In this document: positions 8,359 through 39,252 of the stretch, piece after piece | How the letters are laid out: each line of letters begins with the position of its first letter | How positions within the stretch are numbered: the first letter of the stretch is position 1 | DNA from: Candidatus Hadarchaeum sp. | GTDB taxonomy: Archaea > Hadarchaeota > Hadarchaeia > Hadarchaeales > Hadarchaeaceae | NCBI RefSeq assembly: GCF_038871235.1 | Contig: NZ_JAVZIN010000001.1 | Location: 1-64,000, forward strand | Direction: 5' to 3' | DNA: 64,000 bases | Position numbers and translations under genes: made by a program | The notes under the pieces: model-generated | What the model was told of the DNA's origin: nothing | The model's database searches: none | What the model saw: the letters and a program-made list of their open reading frames with translations, nothing else

Positions 8359-9684
8359 TTGAGGATTGTCATCGTTGGCTTTCAGTCGGCGGGTCTGACG
8401 GCGGCGGCCACGGCCAGGCTCTATAATCGAGAGGCAAAAATCACCGTAATTGAGCGCAGGAGCTACGCCACCTACCATCCTTGCGGGCTTCCTTTTGTCA
8501 TCGGCGGCGAAGTTCCGGAGCTTCGCGATTTGGTGGAGACCGCGCCGAGGCTGCAGGGAATCGATGTGCGTTTGGGCGTTGAAGCCAAGGCCATCAATGT
8601 TAAAGAAAAGACAGTGGAGGTTCTTGACCTCAAGACGCTTCAGGTGGAGAAGATACCTTATGATAAGCTGATTCTGGCCACCGGTAGCGTGGCCCTGAGG
8701 CCGCCGATTCCAGGGATAAATCTGGGCAATGTGTTCAGCCTGAGGACGATTGAGGATGGCGAGAAAATCCTCTCAGCATTGCCAAACTCAAGAAAGGCCG
8801 TGGTGGTCGGAGCTGGCCCCATCGGCGTGGAGACTGCCAGTGCCCTGAAGGAACGAGGGTTGGATGTGGTTCTAATTGAGATGATGCCCAATGTCCTGCC
8901 TGGGATGCTCGATCCGGATATGGCAGGGATAGTGGCCGAGCGCCTTGTCAAGTCCGGGGTTCGCGTCATCTGCTCCAAGGCGGTGAAGGAGCTGCGCGGC
9001 GTGGAAAGGGTCAGCTCAGTAGTTCTGGAGGGGGAGGAGATTCCGACCGATCTAGTGGTAATGGCGATAGGCGTTAAGCCGGACGTTGAGCTTGCCGTGA
9101 GAGCCGGTCTGGCGCTGGGACCGACGAAGACAATAGCGGTTGACGATCATCTCCGGACCAGCAATCCAGATATCTTCGCGATAGGCGATTGTGCTGAAGC
9201 CCGCTGTCTGATCACCAAGAGACCGGTCAGGAGCCAGCTGGCCACCACCGCTATCAGAATGGGCAGGGTTGCTGGGATTAACGCCGCTGGAGGGGATGAA
9301 ATTTTTGACGGTGTTTTGAATGCCGTTGTCACCATCGCTGGCGGATTGGAAGTTGCCTCGGTAGGATTGACCGCGACCGTGGCTGGGGAGGCAGGGATTG
9401 AAGCCGTCTCAGCGCGGGTGAGATGCCTCAACAAACCACATTATTTCCCGGGAGCTGAACCGGTGATGATCAAGCTGGTCGCGGAGAGAAAGGGACAGAG
9501 GCTTCTGGGCGGTCAGTTCCTCGGTACCGGTGCCGCGGAGCGGGCCAACAGGCTGGCGCTGGCGATCAGGAAGGAAATGACGGCAAAGGAGTTCTCCAAA
9601 GTTGATTACTGCTATGCACCGCCGGTGAGCGACAGCATCGATCCCATGGTGGTGGCGGCTGAGGCGCTACTGCGGAGAAGGTAA
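8359..9684 (+). CDS. FAD-dependent pyridine nucleotide-disulfide oxidoreductase (NADH oxidase / CoA-disulfide reductase family)
   Basis: YHPCGLP redox Cys, ATG, VVGAGPIG, AIGDC, YAPP motifs. Confidence 0.9.
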   Translation: MRIVIVGFQSAGLTAAATARLYNREAKITVIERRSYATYHPCGLPFVIGGEVPELRDLVETAPRLQGIDVRLGVEAKAINVKEKTVEVLDLKTLQVEKIPYDKLILATGSVALRPPIPGINLGNVFSLRTIEDGEKILSALPNSRKAVVVGAGPIGVETASALKERGLDVVLIEMMPNVLPGMLDPDMAGIVAERLVKSGVRVICSKAVKELRGVERVSSVVLEGEEIPTDLVVMAIGVKPDVELAVRAGLALGPTKTIAVDDHLRTSNPDIFAIGDCAEARCLITKRPVRSQLATTAIRMGRVAGINAAGGDEIFDGVLNAVVTIAGGLEVASVGLTATVAGEAGIEAVSARVRCLNKPHYFPGAEPVMIKLVAERKGQRLLGGQFLGTGAAERANRLALAIRKEMTAKEFSKVDYCYAPPVSDSIDPMVVAAEALLRRR

Positions 9685-9693
9685 GCGGAGATC

Positions 9694-10251
9694 ATGCTGG
9701 TGATTGAGCATCTGGAGCCGAAGCTCAGCGAGTGGCTTTTCATCGAGTATTCCAACTCGGCGAGGATCGCTGGAGAGGACTTGTTGATAACCAACGTCAG
9801 AAGGGCCACCGATTATCGAAAGCTATCCCAGATCACAAGGGTAGAGAGAAAAAGCGCGCTTGAGCTTTTCCAGCAGGATGAGATAATAGTACTGGATCCT
9901 TTGGCCAGAAAACCATTTTCACCGGAAGACCTCGAGAGCAGATCCTTGGTTCTGATCGGAGGAATCTTGGGAAATGATCCGCCCTTGGGTCGGACGAGAG
10001 AACTGCTGTCCAAGAAGTTGTCCCGGGCCTTAAAGCGCAATATCGGCCGGCACCAGTTCGCCATCGATGGGGCGGTCCACGTCGCCAAGCAGATAATCTC
10101 GGGAAAGAAGTTGGAGGAGATACCGGTCCAGGTGGGTTTGGAAGTGCCGATTGAGCCGGGATATTCGAACATTCTCCCCTATGCCTTTCCGCTGGTTGGG
10201 GGAAAACCGTTGATCGCGGCCGAACTCATCGATTATCTCAGGAGACATTGA
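9694..10251 (+). CDS. SPOUT-class methyltransferase (Sfm1/DUF431-like)
   Basis: VIEHLE...W..IEY, LDP, IGGILG.DPP.GRT, QFAIDGAV motifs. Confidence 0.85.
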   Translation: MLVIEHLEPKLSEWLFIEYSNSARIAGEDLLITNVRRATDYRKLSQITRVERKSALELFQQDEIIVLDPLARKPFSPEDLESRSLVLIGGILGNDPPLGRTRELLSKKLSRALKRNIGRHQFAIDGAVHVAKQIISGKKLEEIPVQVGLEVPIEPGYSNILPYAFPLVGGKPLIAAELIDYLRRH

Positions 10252-10315
10252 GCGAAGACGAGAAGGATAGGAAAAAGCAAATAGATTAATGCTGGAGCCG
10301 GGAAATAATTTCGGT

Positions 10316-10450
10316 AGCCCGGTGGGGTAGACCGATTAAGATCGGGCCCAATGGTCAATCCTGCGGGCCTTTGGAGCCTGCGACGGCGGAGGGATATCCC
10401 GCCGAATTCGAAAGTCGACGGGTCGACCGAAGTTCCGCCCCGGGCTACCA
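10316..10450 (+). tRNA. tRNA-Gln(UUG) with three BHB introns (15/16: 10331-10351; 53/54: 10390-10406; 59/60: 10413-10433)
   Basis: Spliced product AGCCCGGTGGGGTAG-TGGTCAATCCTGCGGGCCTTTGGAGCCTGCGACGGCGG-TTCGAA-TCCGCCCCGGGCTACCA is a 76-nt cloverleaf with A1-U72 and encoded CCA. Confidence 0.93.
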
Positions 10451-10529
10451 CAAAATTTTTCAACGTCCCTTGACCGAAAGTCAGGTCCGTCAATCTTTTT
10501 TGCAGCCACGCCACCTTTAACTTGGTAAT

Positions 10530-10958
10530 GTGATGAAGGGAGAACTCCGTTTCATCGGGACTGTGGAGAGGATTGAGAACGAGGAGGCGGAGATCGCCAT
10601 TTTTCCCGAGTTTTGTCCCGGCCTCAGGGGCATCGAAAACTACTCCCACCTGATAATCCTTTATTGGCTTCACCAGCGGGATACCGCCGAACAGAGGCAG
10701 GTTCTGCAGGTTATACCCAAAAGACACCCTGGGGCACCTCTGGTCGGTGTCTTCGCCTCACGGAGCCCCACTAGACCTAACCCCATCGGCATGTGTGTGG
10801 TGGAGCTCATCAGGGTGGAGAACTGCAGGTTATGCGTGAAGGGTTTGGATGCGGTTGAGGGGTCCCCGATCGTCGATATCAAACCTTATCTGCCTCGGGC
10901 TGACTCGGTTCCCGGAGCAAGGGCGCCCGAGTGGATGTCCCACGGACCGACCACCTAG
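10530..10958 (+). CDS. tsaA: tRNA t6A37 N6-methyltransferase TrmO/TsaA family
   Basis: YSHLIILYWLH, GVFASRSPTRPNPIG, GLDAVEGSPIVDIKPY motifs. Confidence 0.93.
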   Translation: MMKGELRFIGTVERIENEEAEIAIFPEFCPGLRGIENYSHLIILYWLHQRDTAEQRQVLQVIPKRHPGAPLVGVFASRSPTRPNPIGMCVVELIRVENCRLCVKGLDAVEGSPIVDIKPYLPRADSVPGARAPEWMSHGPTT

Positions 10959-11677
10959 CGCCCTAATTTTTTAACAATGCGTTTCAGACTCCGCGCAAAA
11001 TGAGTTTTCAGCAGTTCTTCCGGGTGACCCAGAGTTTTTTCCACTTCAGGGTCAAAGGGAAGCCGACCCAAAAAGTTAGCTTTGAAGGTACCGGTTTTCC
11101 CGATTTTTGAGCTAGGGGGGTGCATGTTCTCCACCAAGCCCAGGGTCGGGACCTTGAGTTCTTGAAGAAGTTGAACCAGCCTGGCCACCGTTTTCACCGC
11201 CAATTTCGACGGCGTGGTGACGACGAGGAACTCTCCCCTTTTAATCAGGCGGATGATGTCTAAGACCTCCTCAGCGATTCCCGGGGGCACATCCACCACC
11301 AGATAATCGAGCTGGCCCCATCGGGTAATGGTCAGCAGTTCCACGAAGACGTTCGAGGCCTCCTCGCCCCTCAGTGGCAGCGGCCGGTCCCCGATGTAGT
11401 AAACCAGCGACATGAACTTCACTCCTTGAACCACCGGAGGTATCAACCCCATTTCCTCAGCAGGTACCGCGTCTGTCGCCCCAAGGATGATGTGGCAAGA
11501 GGGGCCGTGGAAATCCAGATCCAGCAGGCCAACCTTCTTGCCGTCTCGGGCCAGCAGCAGGGAGAGAGTAGTAGCGATCAGGCTCTTTCCCACCCCACCT
11601 TTCCCGCTGGCCACGACGATGATCCTCTTGACCCCGCCGAGCCGTTCGTCGATAATGGCGAGGCGCGGGTCCGGCAC
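10955..11677 (-). CDS. Mrp/NBP35 family P-loop ATPase
   Basis: SGKGGVGKS, LLDLDFHGPS, DYLVVDVPPG, GLVENM motifs. GTG start chosen at VPDPR; ORF extends to 11710. Confidence 0.9.
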   Translation of the reverse strand: MPDPRLAIIDERLGGVKRIIVVASGKGGVGKSLIATTLSLLLARDGKKVGLLDLDFHGPSCHIILGATDAVPAEEMGLIPPVVQGVKFMSLVYYIGDRPLPLRGEEASNVFVELLTITRWGQLDYLVVDVPPGIAEEVLDIIRLIKRGEFLVVTTPSKLAVKTVARLVQLLQELKVPTLGLVENMHPPSSKIGKTGTFKANFLGRLPFDPEVEKTLGHPEELLKTHFARSLKRIVKKLGR

Positions 11678-11679
11678 CT

Positions 11680-12081
11680 CTACGTTGAAATCCTGATGTA
11701 GTCTACCCATACTCCCCTTCCTCCGGTTACCTCAAAATCGGGGCTGCGGCAGCGGGGGCAGCGGATGAAAGCATGGGCCAAGTCGGGGACGAAGTGGATG
11801 GCTTCGGACTCATCGGACCCAACCTCGCTGGGGTCCAAGTTCCACTCGTGCCCGCAGGCCCGACATCTGAAGCGTGATTCTTCCATCTCCAACTTGATTT
11901 CGGTTTTCTCCAGCAAGGTGCCCTTGGTCAGCTCCCGGAGGGCATGGTTGAAGATCTCGGTGTCGATGTTTTGCAGTCTTCCCAGCTTTATCTTTGCCTC
12001 GGAAACCATCTTGGCACCCTTCTCCTTGGCCACCGCGAGCATGGTGGAGACGACGGCCTCGGCTAAAGCCCATTCGTGCAG
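11680..12081 (-). CDS. hypA: Hydrogenase nickel incorporation protein HypA (probable CTG start)
   Basis: (M)HEWALA N-terminus, CRAC and CPRC zinc motifs, GGRGV; coupled to mrp. Confidence 0.93.
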   Translation of the reverse strand: MHEWALAEAVVSTMLAVAKEKGAKMVSEAKIKLGRLQNIDTEIFNHALRELTKGTLLEKTEIKLEMEESRFRCRACGHEWNLDPSEVGSDESEAIHFVPDLAHAFIRCPRCRSPDFEVTGGRGVWVDYIRIST

Positions 12082-12252
12082 GCAACCACCGCTTTCACTA
12101 GGTAAAGGACTATTTAGACGGTTTCGGAGCCCCCTCAACTAACTTGGCTCATTTACGCGGAGCTGTTTTTCAGGAACGTTGGCAGGGTTAACTTGTTGGT
12201 TTAAGGGAAGCAATCTCAAGGTATTTTTATCCTTTTGAGGTAGTAATCTTGT

Positions 12253-12385
12253 AGCCCCGTGGGGTAGACCCGCAGGAGGCGGGGCCCATCGGTCAATCCT
12301 GGCGGGCACCGGCAGGCCGCAATCTGGACCCGCTGACCCCGGTTCGAAATCGACAGCGTCGACGAGAATCCGGGCGGGGCTACCA
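12253..12385 (+). tRNA. tRNA-Gln(CUG) with three BHB introns (15/16: 12268-12289; 32/33: 12308-12322; 59/60: 12349-12368)
   Basis: Spliced product AGCCCCGTGGGGTAG-CGGTCAATCCTGGCGGGC-TCTGGACCCGCTGACCCCGGTTCGAA-TCCGGGCGGGGCTACCA is a 76-nt cloverleaf followed by a T-run. Confidence 0.93.
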
Positions 12386-12472
12386 TTTTTTCAATGCGAT
12401 TGAATAGCGAATTCACACCGCGTTAGTGAAATAAGGTTGTAAAAGTGGGGCAAAGCTGTTGAATTCCGAAGC

Positions 12473-12706
12473 TCAGACGTCGATGACGATGGCGGTATTG
12501 GTGTCGACCACTCCTTTGATTTTGTGAATACCTTCGACCACCGCCCTGCTCAGGGTATCCATGCTGCTGGTATCAACGTGAACGATGATGTCGTAGGGCC
12601 CGGTGACAACATGGACATTTTTTACGTCTTGCAGCTTCTTTATCTCCTTGGCCACCTGCTTTACCTTCCCAATGGCCGCGGTTACCAAAATGTATGCCTG
12701 TACCAC
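12473..12706 (-). CDS. Stand-alone Lrp/AsnC ligand-binding (RAM) domain protein
   Basis: AYILV...GK, VTGPYDII, GVVDTNTAI pattern. Confidence 0.9.
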   Translation of the reverse strand: MVQAYILVTAAIGKVKQVAKEIKKLQDVKNVHVVTGPYDIIVHVDTSSMDTLSRAVVEGIHKIKGVVDTNTAIVIDV

Positions 12707-12762
12707 AAGCTCACCTCAACGTTATTTCGCCCCGGGATTTTAAAGAGCTTTCGAGCGTAAAC

Positions 12763-12954
12763 TCAGAGCTCCTTTATCGCCAGCTTCTTGTTTAGGACGA
12801 GTTCTGCGGACCGGACCACGGCGCCGCCCGAGCCTATCGCCCTCGCAGCTTGGCCCTTGGGCACATAGACCAGAAGCTGACCCTCATGCTCCTCAACCTT
12901 TTCCACACGAACTCCCAGCATCGTCTTCAGTTTTTCCACAATGCTTTGATCCAC
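12763..12954 (-). CDS. Small KH-domain protein (NusA-like)
   Basis: ARAIGSGGAVVR GxxG loop; GGAG ribosome-binding site. Confidence 0.75.
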   Translation of the reverse strand: MDQSIVEKLKTMLGVRVEKVEEHEGQLLVYVPKGQAARAIGSGGAVVRSAELVLNKKLAIKEL

Positions 12955-13281
12955 TTGCTCATCTCCACGATATTTTAGTCAACCCTTTATAAATCCTATT
13001 CACCGGTTTAGCTCCAAATGGCTTAAGATTGTTTTGACAAAATTTTCTGTAAATCGGTGTGATCATTAAACTCTCACGTTGATTGTTGCAGTTTAAAAGA
13101 TCCCAACTCTAAGACACCCGTTAAACTGCAGCTTTGTTGCGCGGTCTAACTTCCTGATATCATAGCCAATTAAATACGACACAATGTTTCATTCCGCCTT
13201 GACCTTTGGTGCAGGTTGGTTAATAAGTGAAAAACTAGCGAACTGTTCACACAAATTCAGAGCAATTTACCCTTGGGTTCA

Positions 13282-37902: not shown

Positions 37903-39252
37903 TTATCGTTGTTGATCCTTTTCAACCTTCTTCAGTGACTCCTCAAATATTTCAAAGCCAACATCCGCCTGTTCCTCTGTGAGTATAAGTGGAGGCGCAA
38001 GCCTGAGCGATGAGGCACCTGCGCCCAGCAACACTAGTCCGTTCTTAAAGGCTTCCTCTATCAGCGCATTTCTGAAGTCCTTTGCGGGTTTCTTTGTGTG
38101 TCTGTCTTCTACGAACTCTATCCCAATCATCATACCCCTCCCGCGAACGTCACCAATGATTTCGTGGGATTCAGCTAGTTCCTTGAATCTCTTAAGCAGA
38201 TATCCACCAACCTTCGCCGCGTTCTGATCGAGCTTTTCCTCCTTCAGTATGTCCAATACTGCCAAAGCGGCCTCACAAATGACTGGGTTCCCACCTAACG
38301 TATTTTCATGCGCGTTAGGATCCCAGTCCATGAGTTCGGCGCGAGCGATTGCGGCACCACATGGGAGCCCCGCCGCCATCGCTTTAGACACAACCATAAC
38401 ATCCGGTTCTACTCCCACATGATCTGATGCCCACCACTTCCCGGTTCTACAGAAACCTGTCTGAACCTCATCCACAACGAAAATTATGTTGTTTCTCTTG
38501 CAGAGCTTAGCAAGCGTAGGCAAGTAGTCGTCAGGCGGGACGATGTATCCTCCGGCCCCCTGTATCGGCTCGATGAGCATGCAGGCGACATCGTCTGGCG
38601 GAACTACCTTCTTCAGAATAGTTTCCTCTATGAATTCTATACAGGCAAGTCCGCATCCCGGATATTCCTGCTTGAACGGGCAGCGGTAGCAATATGCGTA
38701 AGGCACATGGTAAACCCCCTGCATCATCCCTTTGAAGTGCCGGCGAGCGGAGACACTTGTTGTAGTCAGAGCTAGTGATCCCATTGTCCTCCCGTGAAAT
38801 CCGCCAATGAAGGCAATCACATAATAGTTGCGGGTTTGCCACTGAGCTATTTTCAGCGCACACTCAACCGCCTCCGTGCCGGAGTTGCCAAGAAAAACTC
38901 GCTTTTTGAACTTGCCCGGGGACAATTCGCACAATCGCTCCATCAGCTCGACCTGTGGGAGCGTATAAAAGTCGCAACTGTTTACAAAAATCAGCTTCTC
39001 TGCTTGGCGCTTAATGGCTTCGACGACTTTGGGATGTTTATGTCCAACGTTGGTCACAGCAATTCCGGAGCTGAAATCTAGAAAAATATTTCCATCAATA
39101 TCCTTTACCCATACCCCCTCTTCTTCCACCCCCACCAACGGGGCGGTCCTTGTCAGAGAAGGCGAACTCACAGCATGATCTCGCTCAATAAACGCTTTAG
39201 CCTTTGGCCCAGGCGGGTTCACAATAATTTTTGGTCTTTTCAAATTTTTCAA
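37903..39252 (-). CDS. Class III aminotransferase (4-aminobutyrate/acetylornithine family)
   Basis: PPGPKA, NSGTEA, FHGRT, EPIQG.GGY, DEVQTG..RTG, SKAMAAG motifs. Confidence 0.92.
   Translation of the reverse strand: MKNLKRPKIIVNPPGPKAKAFIERDHAVSSPSLTRTAPLVGVEEEGVWVKDIDGNIFLDFSSGIAVTNVGHKHPKVVEAIKRQAEKLIFVNSCDFYTLPQVELMERLCELSPGKFKKRVFLGNSGTEAVECALKIAQWQTRNYYVIAFIGGFHGRTMGSLALTTTSVSARRHFKGMMQGVYHVPYAYCYRCPFKQEYPGCGLACIEFIEETILKKVVPPDDVACMLIEPIQGAGGYIVPPDDYLPTLAKLCKRNNIIFVVDEVQTGFCRTGKWWASDHVGVEPDVMVVSKAMAAGLPCGAAIARAELMDWDPNAHENTLGGNPVICEAALAVLDILKEEKLDQNAAKVGGYLLKRFKELAESHEIIGDVRGRGMMIGIEFVEDRHTKKPAKDFRNALIEEAFKNGLVLLGAGASSLRLAPPLILTEEQADVGFEIFEESLKKVEKDQQR

Follow-up and report, generated by a model that had tools for sequence, protein, structure and literature searches.

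How is a tRNA assembled when its T loop is broken by two introns that leave only six nucleotides between them, and does the sequence dictate which of the two is removed first? This question is raised by positions 10316–10450 of the window, by which we mean the whole stretch of 64,000 nucleotides analysed here from Candidatus Hadarchaeum sp. (assembly GCF_038871235.1, contig NZ_JAVZIN010000001.1). A preliminary description of this DNA had read the locus as a tRNA-Gln(UUG) gene with three introns, and had proposed that the overlap between the two T-loop motifs imposes an order of splicing. Our preferred reading, to which we assign a probability of roughly 0.7, is that the three insertions are BHB introns spliced by EndA and RtcB, that the two T-loop introns are removed sequentially, and that removal of the 53/54 intron first is the likelier, but unenforced, order.

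A tRNA-Gln(UUG) gene in four exons

On its sequence, the locus at 10316–10450 on the forward strand is a genuine tRNA-Gln(UUG) gene, split by three short introns predicted to be protein-spliced. The gene and its flanking elements are laid out as follows.

10280–10291, + strand: A/T-rich block AATAGATTAATG, about 25–36 nt 5′ of the mature end; kept in the upstream flank of L001–L007 and partly in that of L010
10316–10330, + strand: exon 1, tRNA positions 1–15 (acceptor 5′ strand, positions 8–9, D-stem 5′ strand, A14 and G15), placed by the ARAGORN cloverleaf of the spliced form and by block 1–15 of the motif-free alignment
10331–10351, + strand: intron 1, 21 nt at 15/16, with a relaxed HBh′ motif
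10352–10389, + strand: exon 2, positions 16–53 (D loop, D-stem 3′ strand, anticodon arm with UUG at 10371–10373, variable loop, T-stem 5′ strand), placed by ARAGORN and the motif-free alignment
10390–10406, + strand: intron 2, 17 nt at 53/54, with a strict hBHBh′ motif
10407–10412, + strand: exon 3, the 6-nt micro-exon TTCGAA, T-loop positions 54–59, placed by the spliced cloverleaf and the motif-free alignment
10413–10433, + strand: intron 3, 21 nt at 59/60
10434–10450, + strand: exon 4, positions 60–76 (U60, T-stem 3′ strand, acceptor 3′ strand at 10440–10446, A73 at 10447, encoded CCA at 10448–10450), placed by ARAGORN
10456–10460, + strand: run of five T just 3′ of CCA, read from the sequence

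The exons measure 15, 38, 6 and 17 nt and are separated by insertions of 21, 17 and 21 nt. When the exons were joined by script, ARAGORN called the resulting 76 nt as tRNA-Gln(ttg) with a full cloverleaf, comprising a 7-bp acceptor stem, a 4-bp D stem, the anticodon loop CUUUGGA, a T stem GGCGG/CCGCC, the T loop TTCGAAT, A73 and the encoded CCA. The gene coordinates, the intron positions 15/16, 53/54 and 59/60, and the intron lengths of 21, 17 and 21 nt proposed in the preliminary description proved exact, and the spliced form is a clean tRNA-Gln(ttg). An alignment of the spliced sequence to relatives that uses no motif information places the insertions at the same three positions, and in relatives that lack intron 3 (L008–L010) the micro-exon TTCGAA runs straight into position 60.

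The unspliced gene escapes standard tRNA finders. ARAGORN made no call on the unspliced stretch, its intron option included, and Rfam at its gathering score returned no match at the locus, the His and Val tRNAs being the only ones listed for the window. Across the whole genome, the RF00005 model gave 39 matches (34 above the cut-off), none of them at 10316–10450. The host assembly (G000) spans 1.2 Mb in 16 contigs and is 94.75% complete; Gln is absent among its 36 ARAGORN calls made with the intron option. The only Gln candidates that we found in this genome are the locus at 10316–10450 (UUG) and a tRNA-Gln(CUG) gene 1.9 kb downstream, which makes the former the sole detectable candidate tRNA-Gln(UUG) gene in the 94.75%-complete genome. 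Since standard finders miss that one candidate, annotation pipelines would score the genome as lacking this tRNA.

The flanks look like those of a separately transcribed gene. The upstream block AATAGATTAATG is possibly an archaeal TATA/BRE promoter element. Archaeal transcription termination occurs at T runs, and the five T at 10456–10460 are a likely transcription stop. Together, the conserved A/T-rich block upstream and the T run after CCA would fit a separate transcription unit.

Available sequencing data bear on neither expression nor splicing order. A search with window positions 9500–13000 returned three sequencing runs that contain 5–6% of the sampled words; all of these matches are contigs (88% likeness) in which no splice joint is visible, and none is RNA over 10316–10450. 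One contig, from a run that is probably DNA, lies on part of exon 2 and was considered as a spliced product; we rejected it as a relative's gene because its T arm, which has no introns, carries a different T stem. A contig from an RNA library covers 12304–12385 of tRNA-Gln(CUG) with nine differences and the introns in place, a pattern in which precursor and DNA are indistinguishable.

The tRNA-Gln(CUG) gene is itself interrupted three times.

12253–12385, + strand: tRNA-Gln(CUG) gene
12268–12289, + strand: first intron, 22 nt at 15/16
12308–12322, + strand: second intron, 15 nt at 32/33
12349–12368, + strand: third intron, 20 nt at 59/60

Unspliced, it is missed by both ARAGORN and the Rfam tRNA model; spliced by script, it is called cleanly by ARAGORN as tRNA-Gln(ctg). 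At 15/16 and 59/60 its introns are similar to the ones in the UUG gene. A genome-wide regular expression for T-loop introns gave eight matches, five of which have no ACCA tail and were dropped as probable chance. Beyond the window, at 83697–83833 (− strand) of contig 1, the same search picked out a third gene, which has an ACCA tail and an intron of 21 nt at 59/60. The 36 ARAGORN calls also contain oddities, namely Stop(tta), a four-base anticodon (gcta) and Gly(acc), as well as duplicates of Phe(gaa), Leu(taa), Arg(ccg) and Ser(cga); some of the odd calls may be mis-parsed intron-bearing genes.

BHB motifs of the three introns

We compared each intron with the standard motif geometry, which consists, on each strand, of a helix, four central bases, a three-base bulge cut after its second base, and a helix. 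In all three introns the four central pairs are standard (4/4) and the bulges are in register, and each has at least one flanking helix of at least 2 bp: the inner helix only for intron 1, both helices for intron 2, and the inner helix for intron 3, joined by the outer one once intron 2 is gone. These are the sequence features of archaeal protein-spliced (BHB) introns, and we treat all three insertions as putative members of that class.

The centre of intron 1 pairs GGGT (10325–10328) with GCCC (10346–10349), and its inner helix pairs CCGAT (10332–10336) with ATCGG (10341–10345) over 5 bp; it has no outer helix because G9 faces G17. Intron 2 is the most complete. Its 3-bp outer helix joins CGA (10381–10383, tRNA positions 44–46) to TCG (10408–10410, positions 55–57), its centre joins CGGC (10384–10387) to GCCG (10401–10404), and its inner helix joins GGG (10391–10393) to CCC (10398–10400), with bulges GG|A and AA|T54 and 10/10 pairs standard. 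Every helix of the strict BHB that had been claimed for the 53/54 site was found. For intron 3, the centre pairs TTCG (10407–10410, positions 54–57) with CGAA (10428–10431), the inner helix pairs GTCGA (10414–10418) with TCGAC (10423–10427), and the bulges are AA|A and GT|T60. The T stem (10385–10389 with 10435–10439) serves as the outer helix of this intron and abuts the centre only after intron 2 has been removed. The sequence bears out two further points of the preliminary description, that the TTCG/CGAA centre of the 59/60 intron reuses bases of the 53/54 motif and that its outer helix becomes contiguous only without the 53/54 intron, this helix being the T stem.

We then asked how these helices are kept among 12 orthologues with both T-loop introns, which make 10 distinct rows. 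Paired cells amount to 98.4% for the 53/54-motif fold and 98.0% for the fold with the T stem and 59/60 motif; with partners slid by 1–3 columns the values fall to 21–55%, a contrast that overstates significance because the rows are closely related. The inner helix of intron 1 shows two-sided changes in 3/5 pairs across the 10 distinct rows, and that of intron 2 has one compensatory pair (AU in 6, GC in 4). Two pairs of the 53/54 centre change one-sidedly to G-U. The helices of the 59/60 intron are 96–100% paired; their substitutions are all one-sided G-U changes, and two cells are unpaired at the pair that closes the loop. That the 53/54 outer helix is invariant is uninformative, since each of its strands falls on conserved tRNA positions whose letters do not differ in intron-free relatives. 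Across 13 genomes, bulge and loop letters vary freely while the exons are near-invariant.

Overlap of the T-loop motifs

The two T-loop motifs compete for the same letters. T54 (10407) is the third, unpaired base of the 53/54 3′ bulge and belongs to the first pair of the 59/60 centre; TCG 55–57 (10408–10410) serves as outer helix for 53/54 and as central helix for 59/60; and 10385–10387 lies both in the 53/54 centre and in the T stem that is the outer helix of 59/60. With these bases shared, two complete motifs cannot coexist, and because the strict motifs exclude each other the two introns are probably excised separately, one after the other.

The preliminary description had gone further, holding that the two folds are mutually exclusive and enforce removal of 53/54 before 59/60. 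Exclusion stands for the full strict motifs. Enforcement is not supported, since the motif cores (central plus inner helix) are disjoint, at 10384–10404 and 10407–10431, the 15/16 intron is relaxed, no energetic preference is conserved, and each T-loop intron is found alone in relatives. The 59/60 motif depends on removal of 53/54 for its outer helix only; the other two helices can already form in the primary transcript, with predicted probabilities as high as 0.82 in some orthologues, and may be enough for cutting, depending on the enzyme.

Splicing enzymes

The genome encodes a single small EndA, at 38604–39140 (− strand) of contig 10 (L031:1474–2013). This ORF of 179 residues carries both endonuclease domains, PF01974 (E 3.5e-33) and PF02778, and adjoins an ORF that we take, from its translation alone, to be tryptophanyl-tRNA synthetase-like. 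Its closest relatives in named records come from Hadesarchaea and Candidatus Hadarchaeum assemblies (89–91% identity), which places the genome in Hadarchaeota. The ligase RtcB is present on G000:C2 (PF01139, E 2.6e-181). Searches of the 94.75%-complete genome with EndA itself, NF007085 and NF007086 found neither a beta subunit nor a second EndA; a weak PF01974 match on contig 12 was rejected as a second EndA, being a LigD primase-polymerase-like protein.

EndA, about 180 residues from a single gene, with both the N- and the C-terminal endonuclease domain and no fused unit, has the predicted make-up of the alpha4 type. It differs in length from the M. jannaschii alpha4 EndA by only two residues over the matched span, and the insert found near residue 40 of the A. 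pernix alpha subunit is absent from its alignment. The 'L3' insert reported for Hadesarchaea EndA was not located in the alignment to M. jannaschii EndA and solved structures. The tRNAs of this genome nonetheless carry relaxed, non-canonical introns despite a single 179-aa EndA without a loop insert relative to M. jannaschii, which agrees with what the text of Kaneta 2018 (PMC5829648) reports for Hadesarchaea. According to the same text, alpha4 enzymes were held to need a strict motif. The 15/16 intron has no outer helix, and the enzyme must therefore accept relaxed motifs.

Intron states in relatives

A 14-nt anticodon-arm word occurs in 40 of 66 Hadarchaeota genomes. The relatives were parsed by aligning the spliced sequence with cheap long gaps and without motif information, so that intron boundaries come from gap placement and may be off by a base where letters repeat. 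Of the 40 word-bearing genomes, 39 were parsed as tRNA-Gln(UUG) (loci L016, L023, L026–L028 and L100–L133) and one, G032 (score 50.6), was left out. Their introns are distributed as follows.

No intron: 11 genomes
20/21 only: 3 genomes
15/16 only: 5 genomes
15/16 and 20/21: 4 genomes
15/16 and 53/54: 1 genome (G003)
15/16 and 59/60: 1 genome (G057)
15/16, 20/21 and 59/60: 1 genome (G009)
15/16, 53/54 and 59/60: 5 genomes (own genus, the window's included)
15/16, 20/21, 53/54 and 59/60: 8 genomes (second genus)

The 53/54 and 59/60 introns occur together in 13/39 genes, from 2 of 20 genera. The exact T-arm signature pattern was present in 12/66 genomes and the reversed pattern in none; the thirteenth gene with a double T-loop interruption (G048) has a G-U pair in its 59/60 centre. 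In a smaller pass, 23 of 30 loci agreed with these results; the others were three without a UUG loop and four junk parses (scores 27–32).

In the T loop, 53/54 stands alone in G003, and 59/60 in G057, G009 and the tRNA-Gln(CUG) gene. Each motif thus works on its own, to judge from these solitary occurrences. The 53/54 intron is confined to genes with a GGCGG T stem, and 59/60 is also found in tRNA-Gln(UUG) of another sequence type and in tRNA-Gln(CUG). Because genes with 59/60 only carry similar introns while 53/54 sits in one T-stem type, the distribution suggests that 59/60 is the older intron and that 53/54 arrived in a gene already bearing it.

The same orthologous gene exists in nine intron states across the phylum, with zero to four introns. 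Members of one genus-labelled set (g8) have none, two or four, and the intronless tRNA-Gln(UUG) genes are of a different acceptor and T-stem type. The spread, taken without a tree, points to a tRNA-Gln(UUG) gene that has been rapidly gained and lost, or replaced. The four-intron form, found at L094:1389–1547 (G014) and in seven other g8 genomes (L088–L093, L107), presents a second case of interacting motifs. Here GTGG in the exon pairs with CCAC or CCGC in the intron to make the central helix of the 20/21 intron, and this helix spans the 15/16 junction G15|T16, so its fourth pair exists only once the 15/16 intron has been removed. This predicted dependence of 20/21 on 15/16 is clearer than that within the T-loop pair.

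Order of removal

The best-surviving alternative to our reading, though still somewhat unlikely, is a strict obligatory order of 53/54 then 59/60, which would arise if the endonuclease needs a complete hBHBh′ motif with an adjoining outer helix. The motifs invite it, 53/54 being strict in the primary transcript and 59/60 strict only after 53/54 has been removed, and so does the enzyme, a single M. jannaschii alpha4-like EndA with no beta subunit found, of the type held to need the strict motif. Folding of the full-length window precursor likewise gives probabilities of 0.55–0.83 for the 53/54 centre and only 0.02–0.10 for the 59/60 centre. However, the enzyme cannot be strict, given that no outer helix flanks the 15/16 intron of this RNA, and in Hadesarchaea alpha4 enzymes go with marked tRNA disruption, according to the text of PMC5829648. 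The cores do not overlap, and the 13 orthologues show no conserved energetic preference: at 37 °C seven give the higher probability to the 53/54 centre (G000 and G001 alone by a substantial margin) and six to the 59/60 centre. The 53/54 outer helix that a strict enzyme would read reaches a probability of at most 0.08 in the full-length window precursor and at most 0.04 in growing 5′ prefixes, and folding of these prefixes gave no kinetic head start for the 53/54 motif.

We are more doubtful still of a second reading, that the overlap of the T-loop motifs is a selected device by which the 6-nt exon is never exposed on both sides, with a hard-wired order of 53/54 then 59/60 if EndA needs a strict T-arm motif. 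Were it true, the RNA would never let go of a fragment that is too short to remain bound at high temperature, and the T loop, together with its modification by analogy to C. merolae, would be complete only at the last step.

A third alternative, that 59/60 leaves first or that the order is random, strikes us as distinctly improbable. On this account the T stem would form across the 53/54 insertion as a three-way junction and present 59/60 for cutting, after which 53/54 would leave from its strict motif. Energies of hand-drawn folds lend it some weight. At 37 °C the strict 53/54 fold came to −41.0 kcal/mol, the fold with both cores to −47.3 kcal/mol and that with the T stem, the 59/60 motif and the intron-2 hairpin to −49.2 kcal/mol, the lowest of all; this sequence, highest energy first, holds from 37 to 75 °C, and at 85 °C no two of the three differ by more than 1.4 kcal/mol, the T stem plus 59/60 fold staying below the strict 53/54 fold throughout 37–85 °C. 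In the isolated T arm, the T stem has a probability of 0.84–0.91, and the 59/60 centre (0.12–0.29 at 37–60 °C) equals or exceeds the 53/54 centre (0.09–0.14) in probability from 37 to 75 °C. The six of 13 orthologues in which the 59/60 centre is the more probable also favour this account. Against it, a 17-nt branch opposite the 3′ bulge would part the outer helix from the centre, and the full precursor of the window gene rarely predicts the 59/60 centre at all.

Cutting at both T-loop sites simultaneously is also compatible with the energy models, in which the both-cores fold is competitive; for G021 and G056 the predictions put the two central helices at 0.70–0.80 together. Since neither the isolated T arm, nor the prefixes, nor the 13 orthologues show a clear preference for 53/54, we do not count the energy models as evidence for any order. 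Which T-loop intron leaves first is not fixed by the sequence.

Highly improbable, finally, is that we are dealing with a tRNA-like sequence that has decayed or has no function, or that the T-arm insertions have other boundaries, such as those of one composite insertion: standard tRNA finders do reject the locus, but the genome has no other Gln(UUG) candidate, the locus splices to a perfect cloverleaf, its near-invariant exons contrast with variable intron loops and bulges in 13 genomes, the same T loop is uninterrupted or broken at one of the two sites only in relatives, and single-insertion boundaries would cost the T loop its conserved TTC.

We return to sequential, unenforced removal of three BHB introns. 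In this route, a transcript with three BHB introns would be cut by the single 179-residue EndA and rejoined by RtcB. The 15/16 intron would be handled independently of both T-loop introns, and the latter would be removed in turn: cut, ligate, refold, cut, ligate. Such a sequence would keep the 6-nt exon from release as a free fragment. If both introns were cut before ligation, this exon would be held by three or four pairs, on one side to an excised intron, and would probably be lost. Removal of 53/54 first is the more likely course, because its motif is the only strict T-arm motif in the primary transcript and because its removal recreates the 59/60-only substrate of relatives, which would be the ancestral one. 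When 53/54 was removed in silico, the minimum-energy fold at 60–85 °C indeed contained the T stem and the 59/60 motif.

The significance of the locus is modest, as a clean and conserved example of a tRNA that finders miss. Its most useful by-product is the intron series: one gene with 0, 1, 2, 3 or 4 introns, together with a small single-subunit EndA, would be convenient for testing what a BHB motif needs and whether overlap imposes an order.

Comparison with known systems

The layout of adjacent introns at 53/54 and 59/60, the ordered removal of nested introns and the heavy disruption of tRNA genes in this lineage are already in print, and the locus represents no new class. In literature on multi-intron, nested or ordered tRNA splicing we found no description of the tRNA-Gln of Hadarchaeota in the text consulted, and the supplement of PMC5829648 may list it. 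That paper (Kaneta 2018) describes, in its text, heavily disrupted tRNA genes with an alpha4-type EndA in Hadesarchaea, which is the same lineage; the text gives no gene-level description.

Multiple introns are known from other phyla as well, with two or three per tRNA in the archaea Pyrobaculum and Thermofilum (PMC3218864) and up to five intervening sequences per gene reported in the text of a 2026 preprint on Asgard archaea. These surveys agree with our case in that many non-canonical, multiple introns are missed by standard annotators and have been gained repeatedly along the tree; unlike here, overlapping T-loop motifs are not discussed in the portions of text on which this comparison draws.

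The closest counterpart is the pre-tRNA-Pro(GGG) of ARMAN-2 (Candidatus Micrarchaeum acidiphilum), with adjacent T-loop introns at 53/54 and 59/60 (Fujishima 2011, PMC3239211, Fig. 1C legend). As stated there, its introns lie at exactly the two sites seen in Hadarchaeum and enclose the same 6-nt exon, positions 54–59, and the authors describe the T-loop introns as having the strict hBHBh′ motif. The two differ in that ARMAN-2 is a member of DPANN with a three-unit epsilon2 endonuclease and the gene is one for tRNA-Pro, whereas Hadarchaeum has one 179-aa alpha and the gene is for tRNA-Gln, with a third intron at 15/16 in addition to the pair described for ARMAN-2.

The tRNA-Ile(UAU) of C. merolae likewise carries three BHB introns (D-, anticodon- and T-arm), one of them in the T loop (PMC3728597, PMC9602550). 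Its order of removal was followed by RT-PCR of intermediates and related to the free energy of the motifs (Soma 2013, PMC3728597; Nagato 2022, PMC9602550), and its T-arm intron is reported to block formation of pseudouridine-55. In contrast to Hadarchaeum, C. merolae is a eukaryote, and as described there its motifs fold independently without shared bases and a single intron occupies the T arm.

Ordered removal has been reported for nested archaeal pre-tRNA introns (Sugahara 2007; Tocchini-Valentini 2009, as relayed by PMC3728597 and PMC3978253). Those systems, as summarized in these two papers, resemble ours in having several BHB introns in one pre-tRNA; in them, as it would here, removing one refolds another into a full substrate. 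The Hadarchaeum introns differ in lying side by side, and of the 59/60 motif only the outer helix waits for the 53/54 intron to leave.
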